DNA of 36,899 bases, from positions 1 through 36,899 of the IMG/VR virus record IMGVR_UViG_3300024581_001758, one strand, 5' to 3'. Below, in pieces: positions 17,730 to 36,899 of this stretch. The translations under genes were made by a program, and so were the position numbers. The notes beneath the pieces are model-generated. The model saw only the letters and a program-made list of their open reading frames with translations. It was not told where the DNA came from and ran no database searches. Within the stretch, counting starts at the first letter, position 1. Each line of letters opens with the position of its first letter. This stretch comes from a virus.

Positions 17730-18236
17730 ATGAGTATTTTATGTCAAAATGAATCAGCGTTTAAGAATGCGAGAGCATGTTTATTGGCCACGTTCGAATC
17801 CGACGACTTCAAAGAAAGAATCGATTACTCGCCGTGGGGGATCTGCCGCAGCGTCGATATGCTGGCGGACCATCTGCCCAATCTGCTGTTCGCCGCAATG
17901 AGAAAACACGCATTTGCGAATTGGGGGCGTTTCAGCGGCAATGAATCCTACCCAATCCCGCATCCGCGGGGCGAAGAGCGTTTTGTGAAATGGGCCGAGG
18001 AACATGACGAGGCGCAAAATCACGGTACGCTAGACTCGGCCGTGCTTGCCTACGACGACTACCGCAGCCCCAACGCACATTCGGCCCATAGTTTTATGGA
18101 CCATGAAGCTATGGACCACGACGGCGCGGTGCAGTACCTTGAATGGCGATGGGAGCTAGTAGAACATTTAAAGCAATGGTTTACCGACCTGACCCACGAA
18201 CAGTACAAGGCCTATTGCGGTGTGAAGTCACAATAG
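17730..18236 (+). CDS. Early hypothetical protein, 168 aa
   Basis: An AGGAGA Shine-Dalgarno sequence lies 6 nt upstream of the ATG. No recognisable domain. Confidence 0.75.
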   Translation: MSILCQNESAFKNARACLLATFESDDFKERIDYSPWGICRSVDMLADHLPNLLFAAMRKHAFANWGRFSGNESYPIPHPRGEERFVKWAEEHDEAQNHGTLDSAVLAYDDYRSPNAHSAHSFMDHEAMDHDGAVQYLEWRWELVEHLKQWFTDLTHEQYKAYCGVKSQ

Positions 18237-18240
18237 GCGA

Positions 18241-18269
18241 TTGACAGGCAGCCCACGGGCTGCTATAAT
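18241..18269 (+). promoter_or_regulatory. Consensus sigma70 promoter
   Basis: TTGACA (18241-18246), a 17-nt spacer containing the dyad GCAGCCC-ac-GGGCTGC, then TGcTATAAT (-10 hexamer at 18264-18269). Confidence 0.85.
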
Positions 18270-18321
18270 GTACATAGACACTAACGGGCCGATAGGCCCA
18301 CAATTGAAAAGCGAGAGCAAA

Positions 18322-20074: not shown

Positions 20075-20097
20075 ACTAGCGGATTCGAAATAGGGGG

Positions 20098-20126
20098 TTG
20101 ACAGACCCCCTCTACCGTGTTATAAT
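20098..20126 (+). promoter_or_regulatory. Consensus sigma70 promoter
   Basis: TTGACA (20098-20103), a 17-nt spacer, then TGtTATAAT (-10 hexamer at 20121-20126). The -35 element is enclosed by the dyad AGGGGG/CCCCCT (20092-20111). Confidence 0.85.
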
Positions 20127-21154: not shown

Positions 21155-22664
21155 TTGTAAAGAGGGCCTGTGCCAGCAGAAATGCGCGCCAGTAGGCCCA
21201 GCCAAAAAACGTCCGTTCCCTTATCGATTCCCGCCGATGCCCCACCAGCGAACTGCACTGGCGCGCGCGGTGAAAGCAGGCCCAGCATTTGGATTTTTCC
21301 ATGCGATGGGCGCGGGTAAAACATTCACTGTAATCAACCTGCTCTATTTCCTGCACGGAAAGGGCAAAATCAGCGGCGCTATAGTCATATGCCCTACTGC
21401 AATCAAGAATGTGTGGGGAGTGGAACTCGACAAGTGTGCGCCAAATGATGCGGAGTTTAGCCCGCATATCCTCGTCTCGGGCGGGAACAAAGCGGCCCAG
21501 CGATGGACCGAGAAAGAGACCGACGCGCTCCAAATACTAGTTGTCGGTATCGAGGCCCTATCCCAAGGTACGGCAAAGGAAATCATGATGGACTTCGCCC
21601 GCAAGCACCGAGGCGCACTAGCCGCAGTGGTGGACGAGTCATCCAAGATGAAGAACGCGCAGGCCGCGCGCACTAAGACCATCATCAAATTAGGCGCTAT
21701 GGCCGATTACCGCTATGTGATGACGGGTACGCCAGTAACGCAAGGCCTGCATGATTTGTGGCCGCAGATGCAATTCCTCGACCCTGACATTTTGGGCTGC
21801 AGGTCGTATGTCCTGTTCCGCAACATGTACTGCATTATGGGCGGGTACGAGGGACGCAAAATCATCGGCTACCAGCGACAGGATGAATTGATGGAGAAAA
21901 TCGCCCCGTACGTCGATACTGTGACTAAAGAACAGGCGCTCCCTGACCTGCCGCCTAAGATTTATCAGACCGTCGAAGTGGAGCTGACCAAGCAGCAGCG
22001 CGCCGCTATGGCCGAGCTAGAACAGGACATGAAAGCTCAACAGGGCGAACTTGAATTGACGGTGCAGACGGTGATGGACCGATTGACCCGATACCAACAG
22101 ATTATAGGCGGACATTTCCCGCACGAAGACGAGGACGGCAACTATGAAACAACGCCGATTGCGGGCACGAACCCGAAACTTGCGGCTCTGGTATCGCTAC
22201 TTGAACTCGACGCCGAAGTTGGAGTCAAAACCATCATCTGGGCGCGATTCACTGCGGAACGAAACGCCATCGTGGACGCAGTTGCTAAGGCACGGGGAAG
22301 AGAAGCGGTTAGACTGTTTGACGGGCAAGTGTCAGATTCCGACCGAGCACGTTTTACCGAAGATTTCCAGAACGACCCTGACGTAACAGTGATGGTAGCC
22401 AATGTGGTCGTGGGCGGAATGGGTCAGACATGGACTGCAGCTACCCACGAAATCTACTATTCCAACGACTTTTCCTATGAGAACCGCATGCAATCCGAGG
22501 ACCGCGCCCATCGCAAGGGACAAAAGAACAGCGTTAAGTACACCGACATCATCGCCAATGTGAAAGCCGACCAAATGATAGTGCATGCACTGGCCCGTAA
22601 AGGCGATGTTGCGGATTACGTTAAAGACTCATTGACAGATGACCTAGGAGCGAAGTCACAATAG
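21141..22664 (+). CDS. SNF2-family (SF2) helicase/ATPase, 507 aa
   Basis: Motifs GAGKTF (I), VVDESSKM (II), MTGTPVTQGLHDLWPQMQFLDP (III) and QSEDRAHRKGQ (VI). The N-terminus has a Cys-rich CPNC...C..KC segment. Confidence 0.85.
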   Translation: MPCPNCKEGLCQQKCAPVGPAKKRPFPYRFPPMPHQRTALARAVKAGPAFGFFHAMGAGKTFTVINLLYFLHGKGKISGAIVICPTAIKNVWGVELDKCAPNDAEFSPHILVSGGNKAAQRWTEKETDALQILVVGIEALSQGTAKEIMMDFARKHRGALAAVVDESSKMKNAQAARTKTIIKLGAMADYRYVMTGTPVTQGLHDLWPQMQFLDPDILGCRSYVLFRNMYCIMGGYEGRKIIGYQRQDELMEKIAPYVDTVTKEQALPDLPPKIYQTVEVELTKQQRAAMAELEQDMKAQQGELELTVQTVMDRLTRYQQIIGGHFPHEDEDGNYETTPIAGTNPKLAALVSLLELDAEVGVKTIIWARFTAERNAIVDAVAKARGREAVRLFDGQVSDSDRARFTEDFQNDPDVTVMVANVVVGGMGQTWTAATHEIYYSNDFSYENRMQSEDRAHRKGQKNSVKYTDIIANVKADQMIVHALARKGDVADYVKDSLTDDLGAKSQ

Positions 22665-22668
22665 TAGC

Positions 22669-22697
22669 TTGACGGGCGGGCCGACCCGTGCTATAAT
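22669..22697 (+). promoter_or_regulatory. Sigma70 promoter
   Basis: TTGACG (22669-22674), a 17-nt G+C-rich dyad spacer, then TGcTATAAT (-10 hexamer at 22692-22697). Confidence 0.8.
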
Positions 22698-24376: not shown

Positions 24377-26257
24377 ATGTACAGTCCAATCCCAAACCTA
24401 GAGCGCGAACCGTTCATCAGCCTTGATACCGAGGGCGATGGCCTATACTACCCGCGCAACAAAGCCTTTGGTGTGTCGATTTCGACCCGCGACCACGATT
24501 ACTATTGGGACTTGCGCGACGAGCCACACATGGTAGCCGAGCTGCAACGTCTATTGAACGACTACAAGGGCGACATCGCTTGCCACAATGCGTCGTTCGA
24601 TGCGAAGATGTGCAAAGTAGCGGGAATCAGCATCCCACTGGAAAAATTAGTGTGCACCTGCGTTAACGCTTGCCTAATCAACGAACATGAGTCCACGGTT
24701 TTCCCTTGGACGCGCGGCAAAGCTGGCGATTATTCATTGGATTATCTGGCCCAGAAATACCTAGGCCTGACCAAGGACCATAGCTTTTACGACAAGGCGC
24801 GCGAACACTTCGGCAAGCCGAAGATGACCAAAAACCAAATCATGTCCCGCATTGCTGAGCTGCCGCGCCATATCGTCGAGCCGTACGCCAAGCAGGATAC
24901 CCGAGTTACGTACCAGCTGCATGCGCGCCAACAGGAGATAATCTGGGAAGACGGCCTGCAGCAAATCGTGGCGTTTGAGCGCGACACCATGCCTAGGCTT
25001 ATCAGGGCCGAAATGAGGGGCGTTGACGTTGACGTGGAAGAAACCGAACGTGCGATGCCTAAGTTAACCGAAATCATCGACCAGAAACAGGCCGAACTTA
25101 ACAAGCTAGCGGGGAAAGAAGTCAATGTCAACTCTACGCCACAGATTAGAGAGCTTTTCGCTCCAACCGAGACCGACAACGGATGGGTCGCTAAAGATGG
25201 CACTCCATTACAGTCAACCAAGTCAGGCGCGGCCTCTTTTGGAGGCAATGCACTTCGAGACATCAGCCTACCTGAGGCTCGCATCATTGTGGATATCCGC
25301 TCCCTCATTAAGACGAGAGATACATTCCTTGGCTCGCACATACTTAAACATGAAGTCAACGGAAAGGTATACCCTAATATCAACCAGTGCAAAGGCGAGG
25401 ACGGCGGTACTGGCACTGGTCGCCTCTCGTATACTGGACCCGCGTTGCAACAAATCCCTGCCCGTAATAAGCAGGTCGCTTCAATCGTTAAGCCTTGCTT
25501 TCTCCCGCCACAAGGGATGAAGTGGGTAGAGCCAGATTTAGCATCGTTCGAAGTGCGCGTGTTCGCTCACTTAGTGGCCGCATATAACGACACGCTAGTC
25601 CAAGCGTACGCTAAAAACCCATCGATGGACTTCCACCAGTGGGTGGGCGACATGACTAATCTGCCTCGCAACGCGACGTATAGTGGCCAAGCGAACGCAA
25701 AGCAGCTCAACCTATCGATGATTTTCAACCAAGGTAACGGTACGACTGCCGAGACTATGGGCATGGATTGGGAGTGGGCCGAGTTCACCGACAAAGAGGG
25801 CAAATTGGTCCGCTATAAGAAAGCTGGCCCTAACGCTATGAGCGTAATCAATAACTACCATAGCCAAATACAGGGCGTTAAGACTCTGGCCACTCGATGT
25901 AAAATGGTGGCGGAAGAAAGGGGATACATAAAAACCAAAATGGGGCGCAGACTCCGATTCCCGTATAAATTCAAATCTTACAAAGCGTCTGGACTGTTGA
26001 TACAGGCCACGTCGGCGGACTTCAACAAGCGTAATTGGCGCAGAATTGAAGAGGCTCTGGGCAACGACGGACACCTTATTCTAAACACCCACGATAGTTA
26101 CAGCCTCGCCACTCCTGAGAATTGGAGACCCCACTTCGCCCGAGTCAAAGAAGCAATCGAAGATGTTAGCGACATCGGGATGCGAGTCCCATTGATTCTG
26201 GATTTGGATGGCGCGGGGGACAATTGGTGGCAAGCTAAGTGCGGACAGGAGAAATAA
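24377..26257 (+). CDS. dpoZ: Family A DNA polymerase with a 3'-5' exonuclease domain, 626 aa; candidate DpoZ-type enzyme
   Basis: Exo motifs SLDTEGDGL, HNASFDAKM and YAKQDTRV. Pol motifs DLASFEVRVFAHL (A), NAKQLNLSMIFNQG (B) and LNTHDSY (C). The DpoZ subtype is inferred only from linkage to purZ. Confidence 0.85.
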   Translation: MYSPIPNLEREPFISLDTEGDGLYYPRNKAFGVSISTRDHDYYWDLRDEPHMVAELQRLLNDYKGDIACHNASFDAKMCKVAGISIPLEKLVCTCVNACLINEHESTVFPWTRGKAGDYSLDYLAQKYLGLTKDHSFYDKAREHFGKPKMTKNQIMSRIAELPRHIVEPYAKQDTRVTYQLHARQQEIIWEDGLQQIVAFERDTMPRLIRAEMRGVDVDVEETERAMPKLTEIIDQKQAELNKLAGKEVNVNSTPQIRELFAPTETDNGWVAKDGTPLQSTKSGAASFGGNALRDISLPEARIIVDIRSLIKTRDTFLGSHILKHEVNGKVYPNINQCKGEDGGTGTGRLSYTGPALQQIPARNKQVASIVKPCFLPPQGMKWVEPDLASFEVRVFAHLVAAYNDTLVQAYAKNPSMDFHQWVGDMTNLPRNATYSGQANAKQLNLSMIFNQGNGTTAETMGMDWEWAEFTDKEGKLVRYKKAGPNAMSVINNYHSQIQGVKTLATRCKMVAEERGYIKTKMGRRLRFPYKFKSYKASGLLIQATSADFNKRNWRRIEEALGNDGHLILNTHDSYSLATPENWRPHFARVKEAIEDVSDIGMRVPLILDLDGAGDNWWQAKCGQEK

Positions 26258-26258
26258 A

Positions 26259-28559
26259 GTGCAGCTGCAATATGAAGAAATAAAAGAGATAATCGAGATT
26301 GACGATTTTGCGGAGCGGGTACATGCCGCCGCCGTAATGTACGCACGTCAAGGGTTTTACGTCATTCCGATTCGCCGAAACCAAAAAGCAATACCGCCGT
26401 CGGCAATGCGCGTGTCGTATAGTAACGCGACCACCAACTTGGATACAATCGAACGTTGGTATGGTCCTGAAGGCAAATTCCGAGGCTGGAACATCGGCCT
26501 TGCCTGCGGTGCTGAGAACGGCATTTTCGTCGTCGATGTGGACGTGAAGCAAGACAAAGACGGCCGAGTGGCCATCGATGCTATAGAAGAGGACCATGGG
26601 CCTATCGGCGGATTGGTCCAACGCACGGCAAGCGGGTCGTACCATCGCGTCTTCCGTTGGTTCAACGGCGGCACGTCGTCCACTGACAAAATCGGGCGCG
26701 GCGTCGATACCCGAGGCGGGAAGGGCAGGTGTTCATCACACATCGTCGCTTGGCCGAGTGAGATAGACGGGAACGCCTACCAATGGGAGACCATAGGGGA
26801 CGTGCCTGAATGCCCTGATTTTTTGGTCGAGTTGATGGGTACGCCATGGGACGTACCTGACGAAGACTACGGCAATGAAAATGTGACTGATGCCGAGCTT
26901 GAGACTAAGTTCACCAAACGTCAAATTTGGGATATGTTGGTCAAAATAGACCCCAATAGCCTGACTTATGACGAATGGTTGAACATCGGCATGGCAATTC
27001 ACAGCCAACACCCCGAGGACGGTTTGCGATTGTGGGATGCTTGGTCGCGTGGGGGCGAAAAATACGAAGACGGCGAGTGCCACAAGCGCTGGGCTGGATT
27101 CAAGCCATATGGGCCAGTGCGTGTCGGGTCGTTGATTCACTTCGCCAAGATGGGTGGCTGGATTCCGACCCCGCAAATTGCAGATGAAGCCCTGCGCCAA
27201 GAAATGGCCGAGGCCGAGGACGAGTACAGCCAAATCATCGAAGAAATGAATAAAGAGTACGGTGTAGTTCTGGTCGGCGGCAAGATTCGAATCATGGCGA
27301 ATGCCATTAACAAAGACCCTGACCGAGATTTGACCCTCCTATCGATGGAAGATTTCAAGGTCATGTGCATGAACAACAAAATCATGGTGACGGGGGCGCA
27401 AGGCCAACCCAAGATGGTCAGCAAAGCCACCATGTGGATGGGCGACGAGCGACGCAAGGATTTCATGGGCGGGATAGACTTCGACCCATCAAAACCTGCT
27501 GAATTCGACACACCTAACGGGCTGGCCATGAATTTGTGGCGTGGCTGGGCCAAACAACCGAAGCAAGGCGATTGGTCGAAGCTGCGCGCCCACATCGAAC
27601 AGGTCGTGTGCAGTGGCAAGAAAGAGCACTACACGTGGGTACTGGACTGGATGGCCGATTTGTTCCAAGACCCAGCGAATCCCAAGGGCTGCGCTCTAGT
27701 AATGCACGGCCTAGAGGGCTGCGGTAAGGGTACGCTAGTCGAAGCCTTGGGCCGCACAATGGGCCGCCACTACAAACACTTAGTCCATGAAAAGCACCTA
27801 ACTGGCGAATTCAACGGCCACCTGCAAGACGCACTATTGGTATTTGCGGATGAATTGGTGTATGGCGGCAGTAAGAAGACTGCGGGCGCGTTGAAAGCCA
27901 TGGTAACAGAATCAATGTTAATGACCGAGCGAAAGGGCGTCGATGCCCAGCGTAGTCGCAACTGCGTCCACTTGTGTATCGCGTCTAACGAAGCATGGTT
28001 TATACCAGCAGGCCCAGAATCTCGCCGTTGGTTTGTGCTTGAAGTAGCGCCGACCCACTGCAAGAATCCTGATTGGTTCGATGCCATCTACGAGGAAATG
28101 GACAACGGCGGGATAGAAGCCATGATGTACGACCTATTGCAGCGTAAAATCACGTCCAACTTGAAGCGCGCGCCTGAGACAGAATCGCTCGCCATGCAAC
28201 GTGCCATGTATAGTGACTCGGTTCGTGATTCCGTGTACGATTGGTGGCAGACCTGCATCGAGCGCGGTGCGGTGGAAGTGTCGTGCCTAGAAAACGACTC
28301 GACCGAGCAAGGCTGGCCGTCACTGGTCATCAAGCCCGACTTATATGACGCCTACGACAGATGGTGCGCCGAGAAACGGATACCATCACATCAAGTGACG
28401 GGCAAAGACCTATTCTATAAGAAGATGAATAAATTGGGCCTCGATGAAAAGATGCCTAAAGCTAAGGACGTGATTCGCAAAGCGGGCGGCCGCAAGCGTT
28501 GTTTTGTTATCCCAGAACACGAACAGGCCATAAAAGCTGTTATGAATTACGTGAAGTAG
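26259..28559 (+). CDS. Primase-polymerase (PrimPol) / SF3 (D5-like) helicase fusion, about 766 aa
   Basis: PrimPol N-terminus YARQGFYVIPIRRNQKAIP...FVVDVDVK. PriCT-like segment YDEWLNIGMAIHSQHPEDGLRLWDAWS. P-loop VMHGLEGCGKGT and LLVFADE. A GTG start at 26259 is proposed, 9 nt after AGGAGA and 1 nt after the polymerase stop. The track's ATG at 26208 would overlap the polymerase gene by 50 nt. Confidence 0.8.
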   Translation: MQLQYEEIKEIIEIDDFAERVHAAAVMYARQGFYVIPIRRNQKAIPPSAMRVSYSNATTNLDTIERWYGPEGKFRGWNIGLACGAENGIFVVDVDVKQDKDGRVAIDAIEEDHGPIGGLVQRTASGSYHRVFRWFNGGTSSTDKIGRGVDTRGGKGRCSSHIVAWPSEIDGNAYQWETIGDVPECPDFLVELMGTPWDVPDEDYGNENVTDAELETKFTKRQIWDMLVKIDPNSLTYDEWLNIGMAIHSQHPEDGLRLWDAWSRGGEKYEDGECHKRWAGFKPYGPVRVGSLIHFAKMGGWIPTPQIADEALRQEMAEAEDEYSQIIEEMNKEYGVVLVGGKIRIMANAINKDPDRDLTLLSMEDFKVMCMNNKIMVTGAQGQPKMVSKATMWMGDERRKDFMGGIDFDPSKPAEFDTPNGLAMNLWRGWAKQPKQGDWSKLRAHIEQVVCSGKKEHYTWVLDWMADLFQDPANPKGCALVMHGLEGCGKGTLVEALGRTMGRHYKHLVHEKHLTGEFNGHLQDALLVFADELVYGGSKKTAGALKAMVTESMLMTERKGVDAQRSRNCVHLCIASNEAWFIPAGPESRRWFVLEVAPTHCKNPDWFDAIYEEMDNGGIEAMMYDLLQRKITSNLKRAPETESLAMQRAMYSDSVRDSVYDWWQTCIERGAVEVSCLENDSTEQGWPSLVIKPDLYDAYDRWCAEKRIPSHQVTGKDLFYKKMNKLGLDEKMPKAKDVIRKAGGRKRCFVIPEHEQAIKAVMNYVK

Positions 28560-28574
28560 AATCACAATAGGCGG

Positions 28575-28603
28575 TTGACAGGACCGCCACAGGATGCTAT
28601 AAT
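28575..28603 (+). promoter_or_regulatory. Consensus sigma70 promoter of the purZ operon
   Basis: TTGACA (28575-28580), a 17-nt spacer, then TGcTATAAT (-10 hexamer at 28598-28603). The dyad GGCGGT/ACCGCC (28570-28588) encloses the -35 element. Confidence 0.85.
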
Positions 28604-28634
28604 GAACTTATCAACCAACAGAAGCGAGAGCAAA

Positions 28635-29666
28635 ATGAAAAAAGTAGACTTAATCATCGATTTACAGTTCGGTTCAACAGGCAAAGGCCTAATCGCGGGC
28701 TACCTAGCTGAGAAAAACCAACCAGATGTAGTAGTAACGGCCAACATGCCGAACGCGGGCCACACCTACATCAACGCCGAGGGCCGTACTTGGATTCACA
28801 AAGTCCTGCCTAACGGTATCGTATCGCCGAAATTGAAGTATGTACTAATCGGCGCAGGTGCGGTGTTCGACCCTGAACGATTGAAAAAAGAAATCACGGA
28901 ATCAGCCGACTGTTTAGCTAGCGCGGACGTTCTCGTCCATGAGAACACGGGGGTGCTAGCCCCCCGTCACAGCGAGGAAGAACGCGCTAAACTATCGGGT
29001 ATTTCGTCGACCATGCAGGGCTCAGGTGCTGCGCTAATGGAGAAGATGGAGCGCGACGGCAGCAAGCCAATCTTAGCGCGCGACGCACTGCCTGAGTCGT
29101 TTGATGTCGCTGGCGTTACGGTCCGAGTAGTTACCCACCAAGAGTACATGAACGTGCTTTACGCGGCGGAACACGTATTGGCCGAGGGCGCGCAGGGCTA
29201 CAGCCTATCGCTCAATGGCCGATTCTGGCCGTTCTGCACTAGTCGTGATTGTACGCCTGCTCGATTCCTAGCCGACATGGGCATTCCACACAAGATGCTA
29301 CGCAAGGTCATCGGTACGGCACGTTGCCATCCAATCCGCGTTGGCAGTACGGCGGATGGCTATAGCGGCGACTACTACCCAGACCAAAAAGAACTGCAGT
29401 GGGCGGACGTTGGCCAGAAGCCTGAGACAACCACTGTTACGGGCCGAGTACGCCGTATTTTCTCATTCAGCCGCCAGCAAATCGCAGAGGCACTGGCGCA
29501 CTGCCAGCCTGACGAGATATTCTTGAACTTCTGCAACTACACTGAGACCTACATGGACATCGTGAACGCCATTGAAGTAGAGAACCGCTGCGCTAACGAT
29601 GGCAAGCCACTGGTCAAGTACCTAGGCCACGGCGCTACTAAACTAGATGTAAAGGAGCGTTTCTAA
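28635..29666 (+). CDS. purZ: PurZ-like N6-succino-2-amino-2'-deoxyadenylate synthase (divergent adenylosuccinate synthetase homologue), 343 aa
   Basis: PurA-family blocks are recognisable: DLQFGSTGKGL (versus PurA QWGDEGKGK, with the catalytic Asp replaced by Ser), NAGHT, AEGAQG and TVTGRVRR (versus ATTGRRRR). The ATG at 28635 lies 4 nt after an AGCGAGAG box. The track's TTG start is the -35 hexamer. MazG-like and HD genes follow directly. Confidence 0.8.
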   Translation: MKKVDLIIDLQFGSTGKGLIAGYLAEKNQPDVVVTANMPNAGHTYINAEGRTWIHKVLPNGIVSPKLKYVLIGAGAVFDPERLKKEITESADCLASADVLVHENTGVLAPRHSEEERAKLSGISSTMQGSGAALMEKMERDGSKPILARDALPESFDVAGVTVRVVTHQEYMNVLYAAEHVLAEGAQGYSLSLNGRFWPFCTSRDCTPARFLADMGIPHKMLRKVIGTARCHPIRVGSTADGYSGDYYPDQKELQWADVGQKPETTTVTGRVRRIFSFSRQQIAEALAHCQPDEIFLNFCNYTETYMDIVNAIEVENRCANDGKPLVKYLGHGATKLDVKERF

Positions 29667-29923
29667 TGGGCGATTATTCAGAAGCACAGGCCATCATCAA
29701 CAAGATGGCCGAGGCGAAAATGGTGATGAACGCCCATAAGGGCAACATCGAAGACGTCCATGTCAGCCGACTGTTGAAATGCATCAGAGATGAAGTGAAT
29801 GAACTTGATGCGGCGACGGACGCCGACAATATAATGCACATCATTGAGGAGGCGGCAGATGTCCAAAACTTCCTATTGGCCTTGGTACAACAACAACTTA
29901 ACGCGTATAGGAGTCGCAAATGA
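29666..29923 (+). CDS. mazZ: MazG-like all-alpha nucleoside triphosphate pyrophosphohydrolase, 85 aa (MazZ position)
   Basis: The EVNE...EEAAD metal-binding pattern (ExxE...ExxD). The start overlaps the purZ stop (TAATG), and an AAGGAG sequence lies upstream. Confidence 0.65.
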   Translation: MGDYSEAQAIINKMAEAKMVMNAHKGNIEDVHVSRLLKCIRDEVNELDAATDADNIMHIIEEAADVQNFLLALVQQQLNAYRSRK

Positions 29924-30360
29924 ACATCAACACCCAATTACTAGCAGCAGGCGTCACGCGTTGGCACATCGTCGAGACAACGCGCCAGCAAAATCTGGCC
30001 GAGCACCAATTCAACGTGGCGATTATCGCCCGTTGGATTGCCCAGCGTCTGGGCCTAAACGCCCAAGATACGTCTACCGTAGTTGAATCGGCGCTACTGC
30101 ACGACCAGCACGAAATTATGGATGGCGATACGCCGTCGACAGCCAAGCGCGAAAAGACGGTAAATTCAATCCTCATTCCGCGTATCGTTCAAGTAGCAGA
30201 CAAAGTGGAGGCTCTATGGTTCATCCATGCGAGACACATCAACCGACCAGACGTAGTGGAGGACGTACGTCAACGTCTGAGCAATCTAATGGTCCAGCTA
30301 AACGAAGACGAGGCAGCGGTTATTTACGCTCTAATCAGAGAGCTAGGGATAGACAAATGA
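29920..30360 (+). CDS. datZ: HD-domain (YfbR-like) deoxynucleotide phosphohydrolase, 146 aa (DatZ position, predicted dATPase)
   Basis: RWH...LAEHQF...ALLHDQHEIMDGDTPS gives the H..HD..D metal ligands. The start has an ATGA overlap with the upstream gene. Confidence 0.7.
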   Translation: MNINTQLLAAGVTRWHIVETTRQQNLAEHQFNVAIIARWIAQRLGLNAQDTSTVVESALLHDQHEIMDGDTPSTAKREKTVNSILIPRIVQVADKVEALWFIHARHINRPDVVEDVRQRLSNLMVQLNEDEAAVIYALIRELGIDK

Positions 30361-30776
30361 GCGGAGAAAAGACACTACGCAAATACGCGGCTGGACTGTT
30401 GAAGCCGTTCGGCCACATCAGCCAATTGGAGTCGGGCGCTACTGCAGCAGGCGTCCCAGATACCAATTTTTTCGATAAAGAAACGGGCCGCGACATTTGG
30501 GTTGAGCTGAAATACGGCGCGCCCAGAAAGCCATGGGAACTGAGAAAGACGCAGGTCGCGTGGATTCGAGCAAGAATCCGCAAAGGGGGCAAGGTCTTTC
30601 TGCTGCTCAAGTACGGGGGCGAAGAATGTACATACACCTTAATAAACGTAGACAGCGAAGAGAAGCTGGATGCCTTGAATCACAGCCAGAATGTGTTGCA
30701 TTGGGCGATGCAAAGCCAAAAAGAATGGACGAAGAGAATTCCGCAAGACGAACTAGTACAGGAGCTAAGAAAATGA
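30357..30776 (+). CDS. PD-(D/E)xK nuclease, VRR-NUC-like, 139 aa
   Basis: GVPDTNFF...GRDIWVELKYG...KTQVAWI. The ATG at 30357 has an ATGA overlap with datZ. The track's upstream extension is Arg/Ser/Gly-rich low-complexity sequence. Confidence 0.65.
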   Translation: MSGEKTLRKYAAGLLKPFGHISQLESGATAAGVPDTNFFDKETGRDIWVELKYGAPRKPWELRKTQVAWIRARIRKGGKVFLLLKYGGEECTYTLINVDSEEKLDALNHSQNVLHWAMQSQKEWTKRIPQDELVQELRK

Positions 30777-31093
30777 ACGATTTAGATAATATCCTTGAAC
30801 AACGCGGCCAGCAAAACGGCGATTACGGTCTGATGTGCGATATCATCCAATCGCTGAAAGAGACGATGTACTCGACCAATCGCGCGGCAAACATGACGCC
30901 GTATCAAAGAGAAACCATCGACATGATTTGCCACAAACTGGGTCGAATCGCCACTGGCGACACTTGGCACGAAGACCACTGGCGCGACATCGCAGGGTAC
31001 GCCACACTAACGGCGGACCGAGTGAAGCAGCGCAATTCCGCAAACCAGCCTCCTGCTGCCGCTCCCCTCGCTCCTGCGGGAGCTGGGTCATGA
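30773..31093 (+). CDS. Conserved phage protein, 106 aa (DUF6378-like; possibly nucleotide-associated)
   Basis: EQRGQQNGDYG...ICHKLGRIATGD..HEDHWRDIAGYATL pattern. ATGA overlaps occur at both ends. The functional assignment is weak. Confidence 0.55.
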   Translation: MNDLDNILEQRGQQNGDYGLMCDIIQSLKETMYSTNRAANMTPYQRETIDMICHKLGRIATGDTWHEDHWRDIAGYATLTADRVKQRNSANQPPAAAPLAPAGAGS

Positions 31094-31557
31094 GTGCCGC
31101 GCAGATAGTTGGTGCTGAACTCGGCCAACTTAAAATAGACGAGGGATTCAGCGAGATTGCGTACGTCGACACCGAGGGTTATCTCACTATCGGTTATGGT
31201 ACTTGTGTCGCGTATGTGGGTGATATCGAAATTAGGCCGATATGGCGAATCAGCCAAGAACACGCAGTCCAATTACTGCGCCAATCAGCAGTCGATGTTT
31301 ACATGGAAATGGACCGCACTTGGCCGTGGTTCGACCATATGCCATTGGGTGTGAAAACGGTACTGCTGAACATGGCGTACAACATGGGTGTGCCGCGATT
31401 GAGCGGGTTCAAGAAAACATTGGCATTTATCAAAAACCACCAGTACGAAAAGGCCGCAGACGAAATGCTCCGCGACTCTACTGGCACTGGCCGTTCCCTG
31501 TGGTATCAACAGGTCGGCCATCGAGCCAAACGCCTCTCCGACAGACTCCGCGCATAA
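31090..31557 (+). CDS. Endolysin, T4-type lysozyme (GH24 muramidase), 155 aa
   Basis: KIDEGFSEIAYVDTEGYLTIGYGT carries the catalytic Glu/Asp/Thr signature. It is the last gene of the plus-strand unit. Confidence 0.85.
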   Translation: MSAAQIVGAELGQLKIDEGFSEIAYVDTEGYLTIGYGTCVAYVGDIEIRPIWRISQEHAVQLLRQSAVDVYMEMDRTWPWFDHMPLGVKTVLLNMAYNMGVPRLSGFKKTLAFIKNHQYEKAADEMLRDSTGTGRSLWYQQVGHRAKRLSDRLRA

Positions 31558-31586
31558 AACAAAGCCCCGATTAAGGGGCTTTTCGT
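31557..31586. terminator. Bidirectional rho-independent terminator at the convergence of the two transcription units
   Basis: The AGCCCC-gattaa-GGGGCT stem is flanked by an A-run on the left and a T-run on the right (aaaacaaAGCCCC...GGGGCTtttc). Confidence 0.8.
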
Positions 31587-36244: not shown

Positions 36245-36899
36245 CTAGAACTTAGGATTTTTTGACCCCGCACCCAATAAACGAGCGAGGTCTTCTTCAA
36301 TTTTGTCATAACCGCTACGCAGAATGAAATGATTCTGCATCGGCATGAGTTTCCTTATCGCTTTGGCTCGTGCTTCCCCCGAGTTATTACTATTCGGGAT
36401 GCGCAGCGCTGATTCAGCCGCCGCAGCAGTCGGGCCAAGAATACCAGTAAGGCTAGCGTGTGATTGATAATTGTCCTCGGATTCCAGTGGGCTATAACCA
36501 GTGAGCGTAGCGCCCATCTTGGCGAATTCCACACCATACCCCGCAAGACCTGTGTTTTCGACCGCCTCAGCCACCAGCAACGTCGGGTCGTCTGAGATTT
36601 CACGGTCCGCGATTTTCTGTTTGAGCGCATACACCCCCATCCCTAATCCGACGTGTGTAAGAATTTCGACCCAAGGACGTGCTCCGCCCTCTTGGGTGAT
36701 AGGCAGCGTCAGTCGGTTTGTGGCTGCCAGCATGAATGACTTGAATTGGAAAATCGTTCTACCTACTTCAGTGGTAAAGAAGATTGGCTTATCGCCCGCA
36801 CTCGGCGTGATTACCAGTAAATCGGCTTCACGTACCGCTGCGGCTTCGATGGTTTCCACTAATTCTCGGTCCGTCCACTGCTCGATATTCAGGTTATAT
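36245..36899 (-). CDS. 3' part of the large internal virion protein that starts at 2597 (wraps the circular junction)
   Basis: The frame is open to the right edge of the window (YNLNIEQWTDRELVETIEAAAV...). The track's GTG start at 36859 is internal. The protein ends in ...GAGSKNPKF with the stop at 36245-36247. Confidence 0.7.
   Translation of the reverse strand, partial: YNLNIEQWTDRELVETIEAAAVREADLLVITPSAGDKPIFFTTEVGRTIFQFKSFMLAATNRLTLPITQEGGARPWVEILTHVGLGMGVYALKQKIADREISDDPTLLVAEAVENTGLAGYGVEFAKMGATLTGYSPLESEDNYQSHASLTGILGPTAAAAESALRIPNSNNSGEARAKAIRKLMPMQNHFILRSGYDKIEEDLARLLGAGSKNPKF
36801..36899. repeat. Second copy of the 99-nt assembly overlap (identical to 1-99)
   Basis: Exact identity with bases 1-99. 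Confidence 0.95.

Follow-up and report, generated by a model that had tools for sequence, protein, structure and literature searches.

Replacement of adenine by 2-aminoadenine (Z) has been known in principle since 2021 for phages phiVC8, S-2L and SH-Ab 15497, whose DNA is without adenine (PMC8599892). The biochemical and structural reference is cyanophage S-2L, a siphovirus whose purZ-mazZ-datZ trio suffices by itself to put Z into E. coli DNA (PMC8342488). S-2L replicates by a non-selective PrimPol. DatZ and the polymerase DpoZ have been characterized from SH-Ab 15497, also a siphovirus, and DpoZ favours dZTP 10- to 100-fold (PMC8599892). The small pyrophosphohydrolases of the pathway vary: S-2L encodes the (d)GTP-specific MazZ-1, which swaps with MazZ-2 at one position across Z-phages (PMC8342488), and the SH-Ab 15497 type has, instead of MazZ-2, a long DUF5664-DUF550 fusion enzyme that acts on both dATP and dGTP (PMC12884076). 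[quoted passage not shown] In phiVC8 (Enhodamvirus), the counterparts of the genes studied here are p27 (PurZ), p26 (MazZ-2), p25 (DatZ) and p29 (DpoZ).

We analyzed a window of 36,899 nucleotides, positions 1 to 36,899 of IMG/VR record IMGVR_UViG_3300024581_001758. It represents the complete genome, about 36.8 kb, of an uncultivated marine phage of the phiVC8/ZP6 type, and so adds one more to a group that is abundant and well described. The gene content and family assignments of its Z-cluster are established here, and comparison with known systems supports the reading of purZ, mazZ-2 and datZ, together with dpoZ, as the known phiVC8-type gene set for replacing adenine with 2-aminoadenine. We consider it highly probable that this marine podophage builds its DNA with Z in place of adenine. 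Its likely host is a gammaproteobacterium of the sea, for example Alteromonas or Vibrio.

Organization of the Z-cluster

The features of the cluster are as follows.

24377..26257, + strand: dpoZ, Z-preferring family-A DNA polymerase of 626 aa, in the upstream transcription unit
26208..28559, + strand: Prim-Pol/D5-type primase-helicase (Pfam Prim-Pol, PriCT_2, DUF5906), adjoining the purZ promoter on its 5' side
28566..28603, + strand: promoter of the Z unit, CACAATAG-GGCGG-TTGACA-17 nt-(TG)C-TATAAT
28635..29666, + strand: purZ, N6-succino-2-amino-2'-deoxyadenylate synthase of 343 aa, ATG start at 28635
29666..29923, + strand: mazZ-2, three-helix MazG/HisE-type NTP pyrophosphohydrolase of 85 aa, presumed substrate (d)GTP
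29920..30360, + strand: datZ, HD-domain dATP triphosphohydrolase of 146 aa in a short-lid form, assigned from Pfam, PHROG and PDB
30357..30776, + strand: PD-(D/E)xK / VRR-NUC-like nuclease (phrog_2165, 3.6e-13), in ATGA overlap with datZ
30773..31093, + strand: DUF6378-like small protein (phrog_17775, 7e-21), with ATGA overlaps at both ends
31090..31557, + strand: endolysin (phage lysozyme; Pfam Phage_lysozyme 41.4 bits, phrog_7), last gene of the unit, with ATGA overlap
31561..31582, no strand assigned: terminator hairpin, AAAGCCCC-gattaa-GGGGCTTT, between convergent + and - strand units

The layout is collinear with phiVC8, ZP6 and an independent metagenomic relative, L012. phiVC8 shares with the window the order helicase ... 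PolA, primase, purZ, a gene of about 85 aa, datZ, ... nuclease and DUF6378-like gene, and its proteins are 58% (PurZ), 44% (MazZ-2), 33% (DatZ) and 55% (DpoZ) identical to those of the window. It differs in that nucleotide similarity is about 70% and limited to a few genes, and in having the small ORF p24 as well as an SSB and an endonuclease ahead of the polymerase. By DNA, the nearest cultured relative is ZP6 (68.5% over 32% of a 5-kb query), with the same order of purZ, 85-aa gene, HD hydrolase, nuclease and small gene, and identities of 68% for DpoZ, 56% for PurZ and 51% for MazZ-2. S-2L has the same purZ-mazZ-datZ order and overlaps as the window. The nuclease is orthologous to the ZP6 "nuclease" and to phiVC8 p23. 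The DUF6378-like gene, at 24.0 bits below its Pfam cut-off of 27.1, is kept by BLASTP at the same position in phiVC8 (p22) and ZP6.

A preliminary description of this DNA had placed three translationally coupled genes under their own consensus promoter. The promoter at 28575-28603 (TTGACA-17-TATAAT) does match the σ70 consensus at 12 of 12 positions, with a TG-extended -10, but it is not unique to the unit, being one of four near-identical phage copies of AATAG-N4-TTGAC. With at most one mismatch this motif has 8 matches against 1.9 expected, a count reached by 0 of 100 shuffles. A GC hairpin (GGCGGT/ACCGCC, 28570-28588) holds the -35 hexamer in its loop; hairpin and promoter are kept in L012. 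Before purZ, phiVC8 has a plain palindrome and no sigma-70 consensus promoter. The TTG at 28575 was rejected as the start codon of a 363-aa ORF because it is the -35 hexamer; the homologues start at MKKVDL. Coupling of the three genes was likewise correct, through TAATG at the purZ/mazZ-2 junction and ATGA at mazZ-2/datZ, but the unit continues past 30360 with three more genes joined by ATGA overlaps. The strong sigma-70 promoter would thus drive a single coupled mRNA of six overlapping genes, encoding PurZ, MazZ-2, DatZ, the nuclease, the DUF6378-like protein and the endolysin, as far as the terminator at 31561-31582.

PurZ

By profile, phylogeny and pocket residues, the product of 28635-29666 is a bona fide PurZ. 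It had been described as a divergent 343-aa PurA homologue with GSTGKG in place of GDEGKG and with the NAGHT, EGAQG and TGRxRR blocks kept; all of these are present, the last as TGRVRR. The protein passes the curated PurZ model NCBIfam NF038379 (353.7 bits, E = 7e-106, cut-off 300) and fails every PurA model (49-137 bits, cut-offs 368-700). It matches the solved structures of phiVC8 PurZ (PDB 6FM1; 393 bits, 1e-116) and S-2L PurZ (7ODX; 3e-67). The catalytic Asp13 of PurA is Ser in the P-loop, which reads GSTGKG in all 17 PurZ sequences compared, GSEAKG in PurZ0, and GDEGKG in E. coli and megaphage PurA.

In a neighbour-joining tree (300 bootstraps; two PurA outgroups, neither of them archaeal), the homologue lies outside cellular PurA and inside a PurZ clade with 98% support, PurZ and PurZ0 together splitting from PurA at 100%. 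It falls with phiVC8 and ZP6 at 90% and groups at 100% with P0053, P0056 and P0059, a sister clade so far seen only in metagenomes. The PurZ of phage pB23, a stand-in for the SH-Ab 15497 type, shares a clade with that of the window at 97%. PurZ homologues in the databases number more than 2,000; look-ups by exact sequence with the PurZ and the MazZ-2 of the window matched no record.

The alignment with the dGMP/ATP pocket residues listed for S-2L and phiVC8 PurZ (PMC8342488) shows the published pocket kept: S23, N49, A50, T132, R146, Q190, C204, T205, R240, V241, T273-T276, R280, N305 and F306, together with Asn at phiVC8 N297. The only differences are G130 to Ser, Y203 to Phe and P336 to Ala.

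MazZ-2

The 85-aa protein had been called MazG-like with an ExxE...ExxD pattern, and this pattern is found as E43xxE46 and E62xxD65. Its identity of 44% to phiVC8 p26 (E = 8e-20) and 51% to the ZP6 "MazG" identifies it as MazZ-2 of the phiVC8 type, not as MazZ-1 of the S-2L type. Pfam PRA-PH recognizes it at 22.8 bits (cut-off 21.3). Seven residues are invariant in 44 homologues: the four acidic residues E43, E46, E62 and D65, and Y81, R82 and R84, including the C-terminal Arg that is the counterpart of S-2L R83. A search of the PDB with the single sequence gave only chance-level matches (globin, Cmr2), whereas the profile of 44 sequences matches 2P06 (0.0015), 2YXH, 1VMG and 2A7W, aligned on the motif, all of them members of the all-alpha NTP pyrophosphohydrolase (MazG/HisE) superfamily. 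The AlphaFold2 model (pLDDT 89) gives 2P06 as top Foldseek match (TM 0.67), followed by HisIE and MazG, none of them at E<=0.001.

S-2L MazZ (PDB 7ODY) stands apart. Neither phmmer nor the 44-sequence profile matched it at E<=10, and it ranked 43rd in the Foldseek search with a TM of 0.35, so that the window protein lacks a sequence or convincing fold match to it. An automatic MAFFT alignment of the two places the second acidic pair off by seven residues and was used for E35/E38 only. Our literature search, in which just two works used the name MazZ-2, turned up no published assay of such a protein. Given this and the missing link to S-2L MazZ, we infer a supply of dGMP by MazZ-2 only from gene position and superfamily.

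We therefore weighed a reading in which dGMP comes not from the 85-aa protein but from host pools or degraded host DNA. The protein might then be a pyrophosphatase that sanitizes dATP or dUTP, a dual dATP/dGTP enzyme like the DUF550 enzyme of SH-Ab 15497, or, as the ZP6 paper suggests, a (p)ppGpp hydrolase. The missing assay, closest folds of the HisE and AF_0060 type rather than S-2L MazZ, and the hydrolysis of dATP as well as dGTP by the SH-Ab 15497 enzyme speak for such a role. Against it, the gene lies strictly between purZ and datZ and is overlap-coupled to both, an arrangement also present in phiVC8, ZP6 and L012; the metal-binding acidic residues are invariant; and MazZ-1 and MazZ-2 alternate at this one position in Z-phages (PMC8342488). 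We regard this reading as unlikely, though it survives better than the other alternatives, and keep MazZ-2 as the putative source of dGMP. Its conserved MNAHKGxIE motif and modelled HisE-like fold could give it a substrate range unlike that of S-2L MazZ, for example a dual one for dATP and dGTP.

DatZ

The third gene had been described as a YfbR-like HD hydrolase, in agreement with its Pfam match (YfbR-like, 46 bits). It also matches phrog_7076 ("dATP triphosphohydrolase"), and its best PDB match is S-2L DatZ (6ZPA, 9e-10). As in S-2L, the catalytic set is kept: the metal ligands H34, H66, D67 and D119 correspond to H29, H61, D62 and D93 of the window, and the phosphate contacts R19 and K81 to R14 and K76. 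The specificity residues W20, which excludes the 2'-OH, and I22, which excludes the 2-amino group, are kept as W15 and I17. At I22 the window is nearer to S-2L than are phiVC8 (Leu) and ZP6 (Met).

Other positions have changed. The base-stacking P79 is Thr, as in 22 of 160 relatives, and Val in phiVC8. A deletion of about 20 aa follows P79, beside the base-covering loop. The protein is 24 aa shorter than phiVC8 DatZ; ZP6 DatZ is of the long form (171 aa) with K116 kept. In the window a Gln replaces K116, "strictly conserved" according to PMC8065100, and members of its clade have either Gln or His there. In 9 of 11 sequences with Q116, the loss is paired with a new, invariant Lys at +4 (T120 to Lys), so that the gamma-phosphate-binding lysine may have moved by one helical turn. 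Of the 160 DatZ relatives compared, 56 have short lids, and at least 8 clusters keep the short form over its whole length (54 invariant columns, 51-78% identity), on which ground we rejected a truncation or pseudogene.

These changes could mean that the cluster is intact but substitution partial or conditional, with a weakened or altered DatZ (a general dNMP/dNTP nucleotidase like YfbR, for instance) leaving adenine exclusion to DpoZ alone. The loss of K116, the deletion and the Thr at P79 point that way, as does the structural model (pLDDT 82; TM 0.62 to 6ZPA), whose Foldseek E-values are weak and for which AF1432 and YfbR score like S-2L DatZ; built from 8 short-form sequences, this model has a shallow alignment and low confidence in the substrate-binding RW loop. 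However, the metal ligands, R19, K81, W20 and the 2-amino-excluding I22, with its likeness to S-2L, all remain, as do the 54 invariant columns across 8 clusters. The covariation of K116 loss with the +4 Lys suggests compensation rather than decay. Partial substitution thus seems improbable to us, and we take the short-lid protein to be a probably functional DatZ variant.

DpoZ and the upstream primase

The preliminary description did not mention a further component of the gene set, a dpoZ gene 2.4 kb upstream of the Z unit. Its product scores 768 bits against phiVC8 DpoZ (PDB 7PBK) and 98 bits against Klenow. All three insertions of the DpoZ clade (G349-G353, A442-P448 and P473-K491) are present, as in phiVC8, along with the extended exo E1/E2 element. 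The first insertion is identical (GEDGG), the second reads ATYSGQA versus ASYSGQP, and the third DWEWAEFTDKEGKLVRYKK versus PWEWCEFTDKKGELIRYKK. The exonuclease residues D26/E28/D85 are intact (DTE and D), M165 is unchanged, and Lys stands at R161. In encoding DpoZ the window differs from S-2L and its PrimPol. The primase-helicase between dpoZ and the Z unit is 55% identical to the ZP6 primase, and its true start may lie near 26259.

Depletion of CCGG and GATC

CCGG is depleted in the genome, as it is in phiVC8. The site has no A or T and is not protected by dZ; its depletion is compatible with a Z genome and not specific to one. GATC is depleted about ten-fold although it contains A, a feature common to phiVC8 and ZP6. 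Z may therefore not protect every A-containing site, and substitution may leave DNA open to GATC-directed host nucleases. S-2L, at 69% GC, shows no depletion of either CCGG or GATC.

Proposed pathway

We propose a five-step route. MazZ-2 would convert (d)GTP to dGMP, which PurZ would join to aspartate with ATP or dATP as donor, forming N6-succino-2-amino-dAMP; this second step is suggested by 58% identity to the crystallized phiVC8 enzyme and by the kept pocket residues. Host PurB and host kinases would complete dZTP; no phage copies of the PurB or kinase genes for dZTP were found in the genome. DatZ is predicted to destroy dATP, in view of its kept catalytic and adenine-specificity residues. 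Finally, DpoZ probably polymerizes dZTP preferentially opposite T, given its 55% identity to phiVC8 DpoZ and the presence of all clade-specific insertions.

The alternative in which the phage has a normal ATGC genome and carries the PurA homologue as a plain adenylosuccinate synthetase, an auxiliary metabolic gene that boosts AMP synthesis, can draw on the generic Pfam match (Adenylsucc_synt) and on the many database copies named "adenylosuccinate synthetase", but the Asp13 to Ser change, the model scores, the placement apart from PurA at 98-100% support and the presence of DatZ, MazZ-2 and DpoZ alongside leave it almost no probability, and it is effectively refuted already.

The earlier reading of the trio as that of a Z-phage is supported. 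Each computational check put forward with it spoke in its favour, including placement in the PurZ clade; S-2L DatZ is the best structure match of DatZ, and the three genes and their motifs lie where they had been described. That every A of the genome is Z in the virion would follow by analogy with its chemically analyzed relatives (PMC8599892). A joint reading, in which the sister clade runs the Z pathway with two variant enzymes, MazZ-2 and short-lid DatZ, and in which GATC marks a limit of Z-based protection, is offered tentatively; taken as a whole we find it doubtful.

Implications

Our analysis is a modest addition. It puts on record a marine clade, abundant and uncultured, that has DpoZ besides a complete Z-cluster, draws attention to MazZ-2 as an enzyme for which we found no published assay, and describes a DatZ variant with a putatively relocated lysine. 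The joint depletion of CCGG and GATC provides a cheap hypothesis on the limits of Z-based protection; if it is true, GATC-directed nucleases mark a limit of the defence that the Z base provides. In standard sequencing, Z is read out as A. Should our prediction be correct, the virion carries 2-aminoadenine wherever this genome has been deposited with an A, and melting behaviour, restriction sensitivity and the reading of the DNA by promoters and DNA-binding proteins are altered; this would bear in practice on how metagenomes are interpreted and how such DNA is cloned.

Results

The window spans an entire JGI contig and bears an exact 99-bp direct repeat at 1-99 and 36801-36899. The repeat represents either terminal redundancy or circular-assembly overlap, and the contig is therefore a complete genome of ~36.8 kb. 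Gene order runs SNF2 helicase, two Pam3-like genes, PolA, primase-helicase, purZ, mazZ-2, datZ, nuclease, and DUF6378-like gene, and is collinear with both phiVC8 and Alteromonas phage ZP6. An identical layout occurs in a relative present in ~65 sample blocks.

The Z unit includes the following features:

28635-29666, + strand, purZ, 343 aa
29666-29923, + strand, mazZ-2, 85 aa
29920-30360, + strand, datZ, 146 aa
30773-31093, DUF6378-like small protein gene (Pfam match just under cut-off), translationally coupled inside the unit
31561-31582, terminator hairpin after the endolysin gene, end of the unit

The three overlapping open reading frames of the preliminary description are present, as is every motif quoted for them: GSTGKG, NAGHT, EGAQG, and TGRVRR in PurZ, ExxE...ExxD in the 85-aa protein, and HD in DatZ. 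Coupling of the trio also holds, through a TAATG overlap between purZ and mazZ-2 and an ATGA overlap between mazZ-2 and datZ. Its proposed extent of three genes was too short, as four consecutive ATGA overlaps connect datZ with a PD-(D/E)xK-type nuclease, the DUF6378-like gene, and the endolysin. The position of the DUF6378-like gene is kept in phiVC8 (p22), ZP6, and the metagenomic relative L012, and we found no discussion of its product in the Z-genome literature examined. The purZ promoter combines TTGACA at 28575, a 17-nt spacer, TATAAT, and a TG extended -10. A mechanical listing gives a 363-aa reading frame from TTG 28575, which we rejected as purZ because this TTG lies within the -35 TTGACA of a promoter matching consensus at 12/12 positions; purZ homologues start at the MKKVDL methionine.

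Several lines of evidence identify the 343-aa protein as PurZ. It scores 353.7 bits against the NCBIfam PurZ model NF038379 (curated cut-off 300), compared with 49-137 bits against five PurA models with cut-offs of 368-700. The closest solved structures are phiVC8 PurZ (6FM1; E = 1e-116, 58% identity) and S-2L PurZ (7ODX; 3e-67), followed by archaeal PurA (82 bits), PurZ0 (7VF6; 69 bits), and E. coli PurA (46 bits). The P-loop column discriminates the classes cleanly. All PurZ-type proteins compared, that of the window included, carry GSTGKG, except that of Flavobacterium phage MaF61 (GSSGKG; groups with PurZ-type). Actinophage PurZ0 carries GSEAKG, and PurA carries GDEGKG in both E. coli and megaphage. 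In a neighbour-joining tree (300 bootstraps), the window protein and metagenomic proteins form a 100% clade. Together with phiVC8 and ZP6 this makes up a 90% clade, itself inside a 98% PurZ clade apart from PurZ0 (99%) and PurA (100%). Of the dGMP/ATP pocket residues that PMC8342488 gives for PurZ of S-2L and phiVC8, all are invariant in the alignment except for G130S, Y203F, and P336A. Clustering with cellular PurA, which would have counted against the preliminary identification, was looked for and not found in this tree.

Two PurZ proteins 58-59% identical to that of the window (P0073 and P0098) carry the NCBI label adenylosuccinate synthetase. They are assigned to 'Candidatus Babeliales bacterium' and 'Deltaproteobacteria bacterium' MAGs; their contigs (25 kb and 3 kb) are probably phage DNA mis-binned into bacterial MAGs. 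The PurA-like gene of MaF61 (168 kb; 1468-2811, 447 aa, catalytic Asp lost) lies between scaffold and terminase genes with no DatZ or MazZ adjacent, and in the tree its product joins PurZ, with weak internal support, and not PurA.

The window polymerase scores 768 bits against phiVC8 DpoZ (7PBK) versus 98 bits against Klenow, and keeps the exonuclease catalytic residues and, near residue-for-residue, all three insertions of the DpoZ clade (features in PMC8599892). The primase reading frame as listed (start 26208) overlaps the dpoZ end by 50 nt. Its true start is probably 26259, just past the dpoZ stop, because homology to the ZP6 primase begins at residue 18, the codon at that position.

The 85-aa protein shares 44% identity with phiVC8 p26 and 51% with a ZP6 protein annotated MazG. 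The phiVC8-like class is named MazZ-2, and BLAST sees no link between it and S-2L-like MazZ-1 (PMC8342488); in keeping with this, our searches with phmmer and with a profile of 44 sequences both failed to reach S-2L MazZ. Pfam has no MazZ-2 model, so a dedicated HMM was built in a 2026 study (PMC12884076); the window protein falls narrowly above the Pfam PRA-PH cut-off. Against the PDB, our profile matched only 2P06 (E = 0.0015), 2YXH, 1VMG, and 2A7W, all of them all-alpha NTP pyrophosphohydrolases aligned on the EExxEL...EEaADV helices. An AlphaFold2 model gives a three-helix hairpin (pLDDT 89), whose top Foldseek matches are again all-alpha NTP pyrophosphohydrolases (2P06, TM 0.67) with no strong E-value, S-2L MazZ ranking 43. 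All family members share E43, E46, E62, D65, Y81, R82, R84, and an MNAHKGxIE motif. Identity to p26 and ZP6, profile matches, fold, and invariant residues together support membership of this superfamily and MazZ-2 orthology. The putative substrate, (d)GTP, is suggested only by gene position; our literature search found no published assay of any MazZ-2.

DatZ has S-2L DatZ (6ZPA; 9e-10) as its closest solved structure, with YfbR behind, and matches PHROG 7076, 'dATP triphosphohydrolase'. It keeps the metal ligands together with R19 and K81, as well as W20, which excludes the 2'-OH, and I22, which excludes the 2-amino group (S-2L numbering; roles from PMC8065100). Three differences stand out: a ~20-residue deletion directly after the base-covering loop, Thr in place of P79, and Gln in place of K116, a residue described as strictly conserved. 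From the alignments, this short form is not decay, since eight clusters of 145-148 aa (51-78% identity) share all three traits and 54 invariant columns. An exhaustive HMM search returned 2,531 DatZ-like representatives with bimodal K81-D119 spacing; the spacing is short in 56 of 160 aligned relatives, and Gln116 is paired with a new Lys120 in 9 of 11 cases. Within the clade (window Q90 and K94; P0045-P0052, P0173, P0174), K116 changes to Gln or His together with a new invariant Lys at +4. As i and i+4 share one helix face, we infer that the gamma-phosphate contact may have moved to this Lys. R88, R105, H106, and R109 are further invariant basic residues absent from long DatZ forms.

Discussion

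We consider it very probable that this phage makes dZTP from dGMP through PurZ, host PurB, and host kinases, removes dATP by DatZ, and replicates with a Z-preferring DpoZ that would polymerise dZTP. This reading draws on homology with phages for which a chemical analysis of the DNA exists (phiVC8, S-2L, and SH-Ab 15497; PMC8599892) and on the sufficiency of the S-2L purZ-mazZ-datZ trio for Z in E. coli (PMC8342488). Residual doubt concerns the chemistry of the DNA, the activity of MazZ-2, and the variant DatZ. No phage purB or nucleotide kinase was present among the ORFs tested in the window, which fits the dependence on host enzymes described in the literature.

The Z system itself is already known, the ZP6 trio having been published in 2021 (PMC8515928). 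Judged by sequence identity, the phage is a new lineage, because comparison of the window with deposited phages gives at most 60% identity for PurZ and at most ~70% for local nucleotide matches. The protein collection contains >2,000 PurZ homologues; among the best 120, identity never falls below 51%, and most of these lie on 35-45 kb contigs.

A few palindromic sites are extremely depleted. CCGG occurs once against 120 expected, GATC 15 times against 143 (none between 20281 and 31613), and GGCGCC, CTCGAG, GGTACC, and GGGCCC are all absent against 5-13 expected; GGCC, GCGC, and CGCG counts are normal. The same palindromes are depleted in phiVC8 and ZP6, unlike in S-2L. Purging of CCGG makes sense because the site has no A, so that Z cannot protect it, and HpaII cuts dZ-DNA normally (PMC12944874). 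GATC contains A, yet is depleted like CCGG.

The purZ promoter belongs to a family of four near-identical, strong composite promoters:

18232-18270, + strand, composite promoter
20089-20126, + strand, composite promoter
22660-22697, + strand, composite promoter
28566-28603, + strand, composite promoter

Their layout is (T)CACAATAG-N4-TTGAC(A/G)-17 nt-TGnTATAAT, with a 12/12 consensus match in three and 11/12 in one. With ≤1 mismatch allowed, AATAG-N4-TTGAC is found 8 times where 1.9 would be expected, a count reached in 0 of 100 shuffles. Two of the four copies (20089 and 28566) place the -35 hexamer within the loop of a 5-6-bp GC hairpin, an arrangement conserved in L012 (5617-5648); the corresponding spot in phiVC8 holds just a palindrome. 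Z substitution of the genome would require host sigma-70 to read -10 boxes containing Z on incoming DNA.
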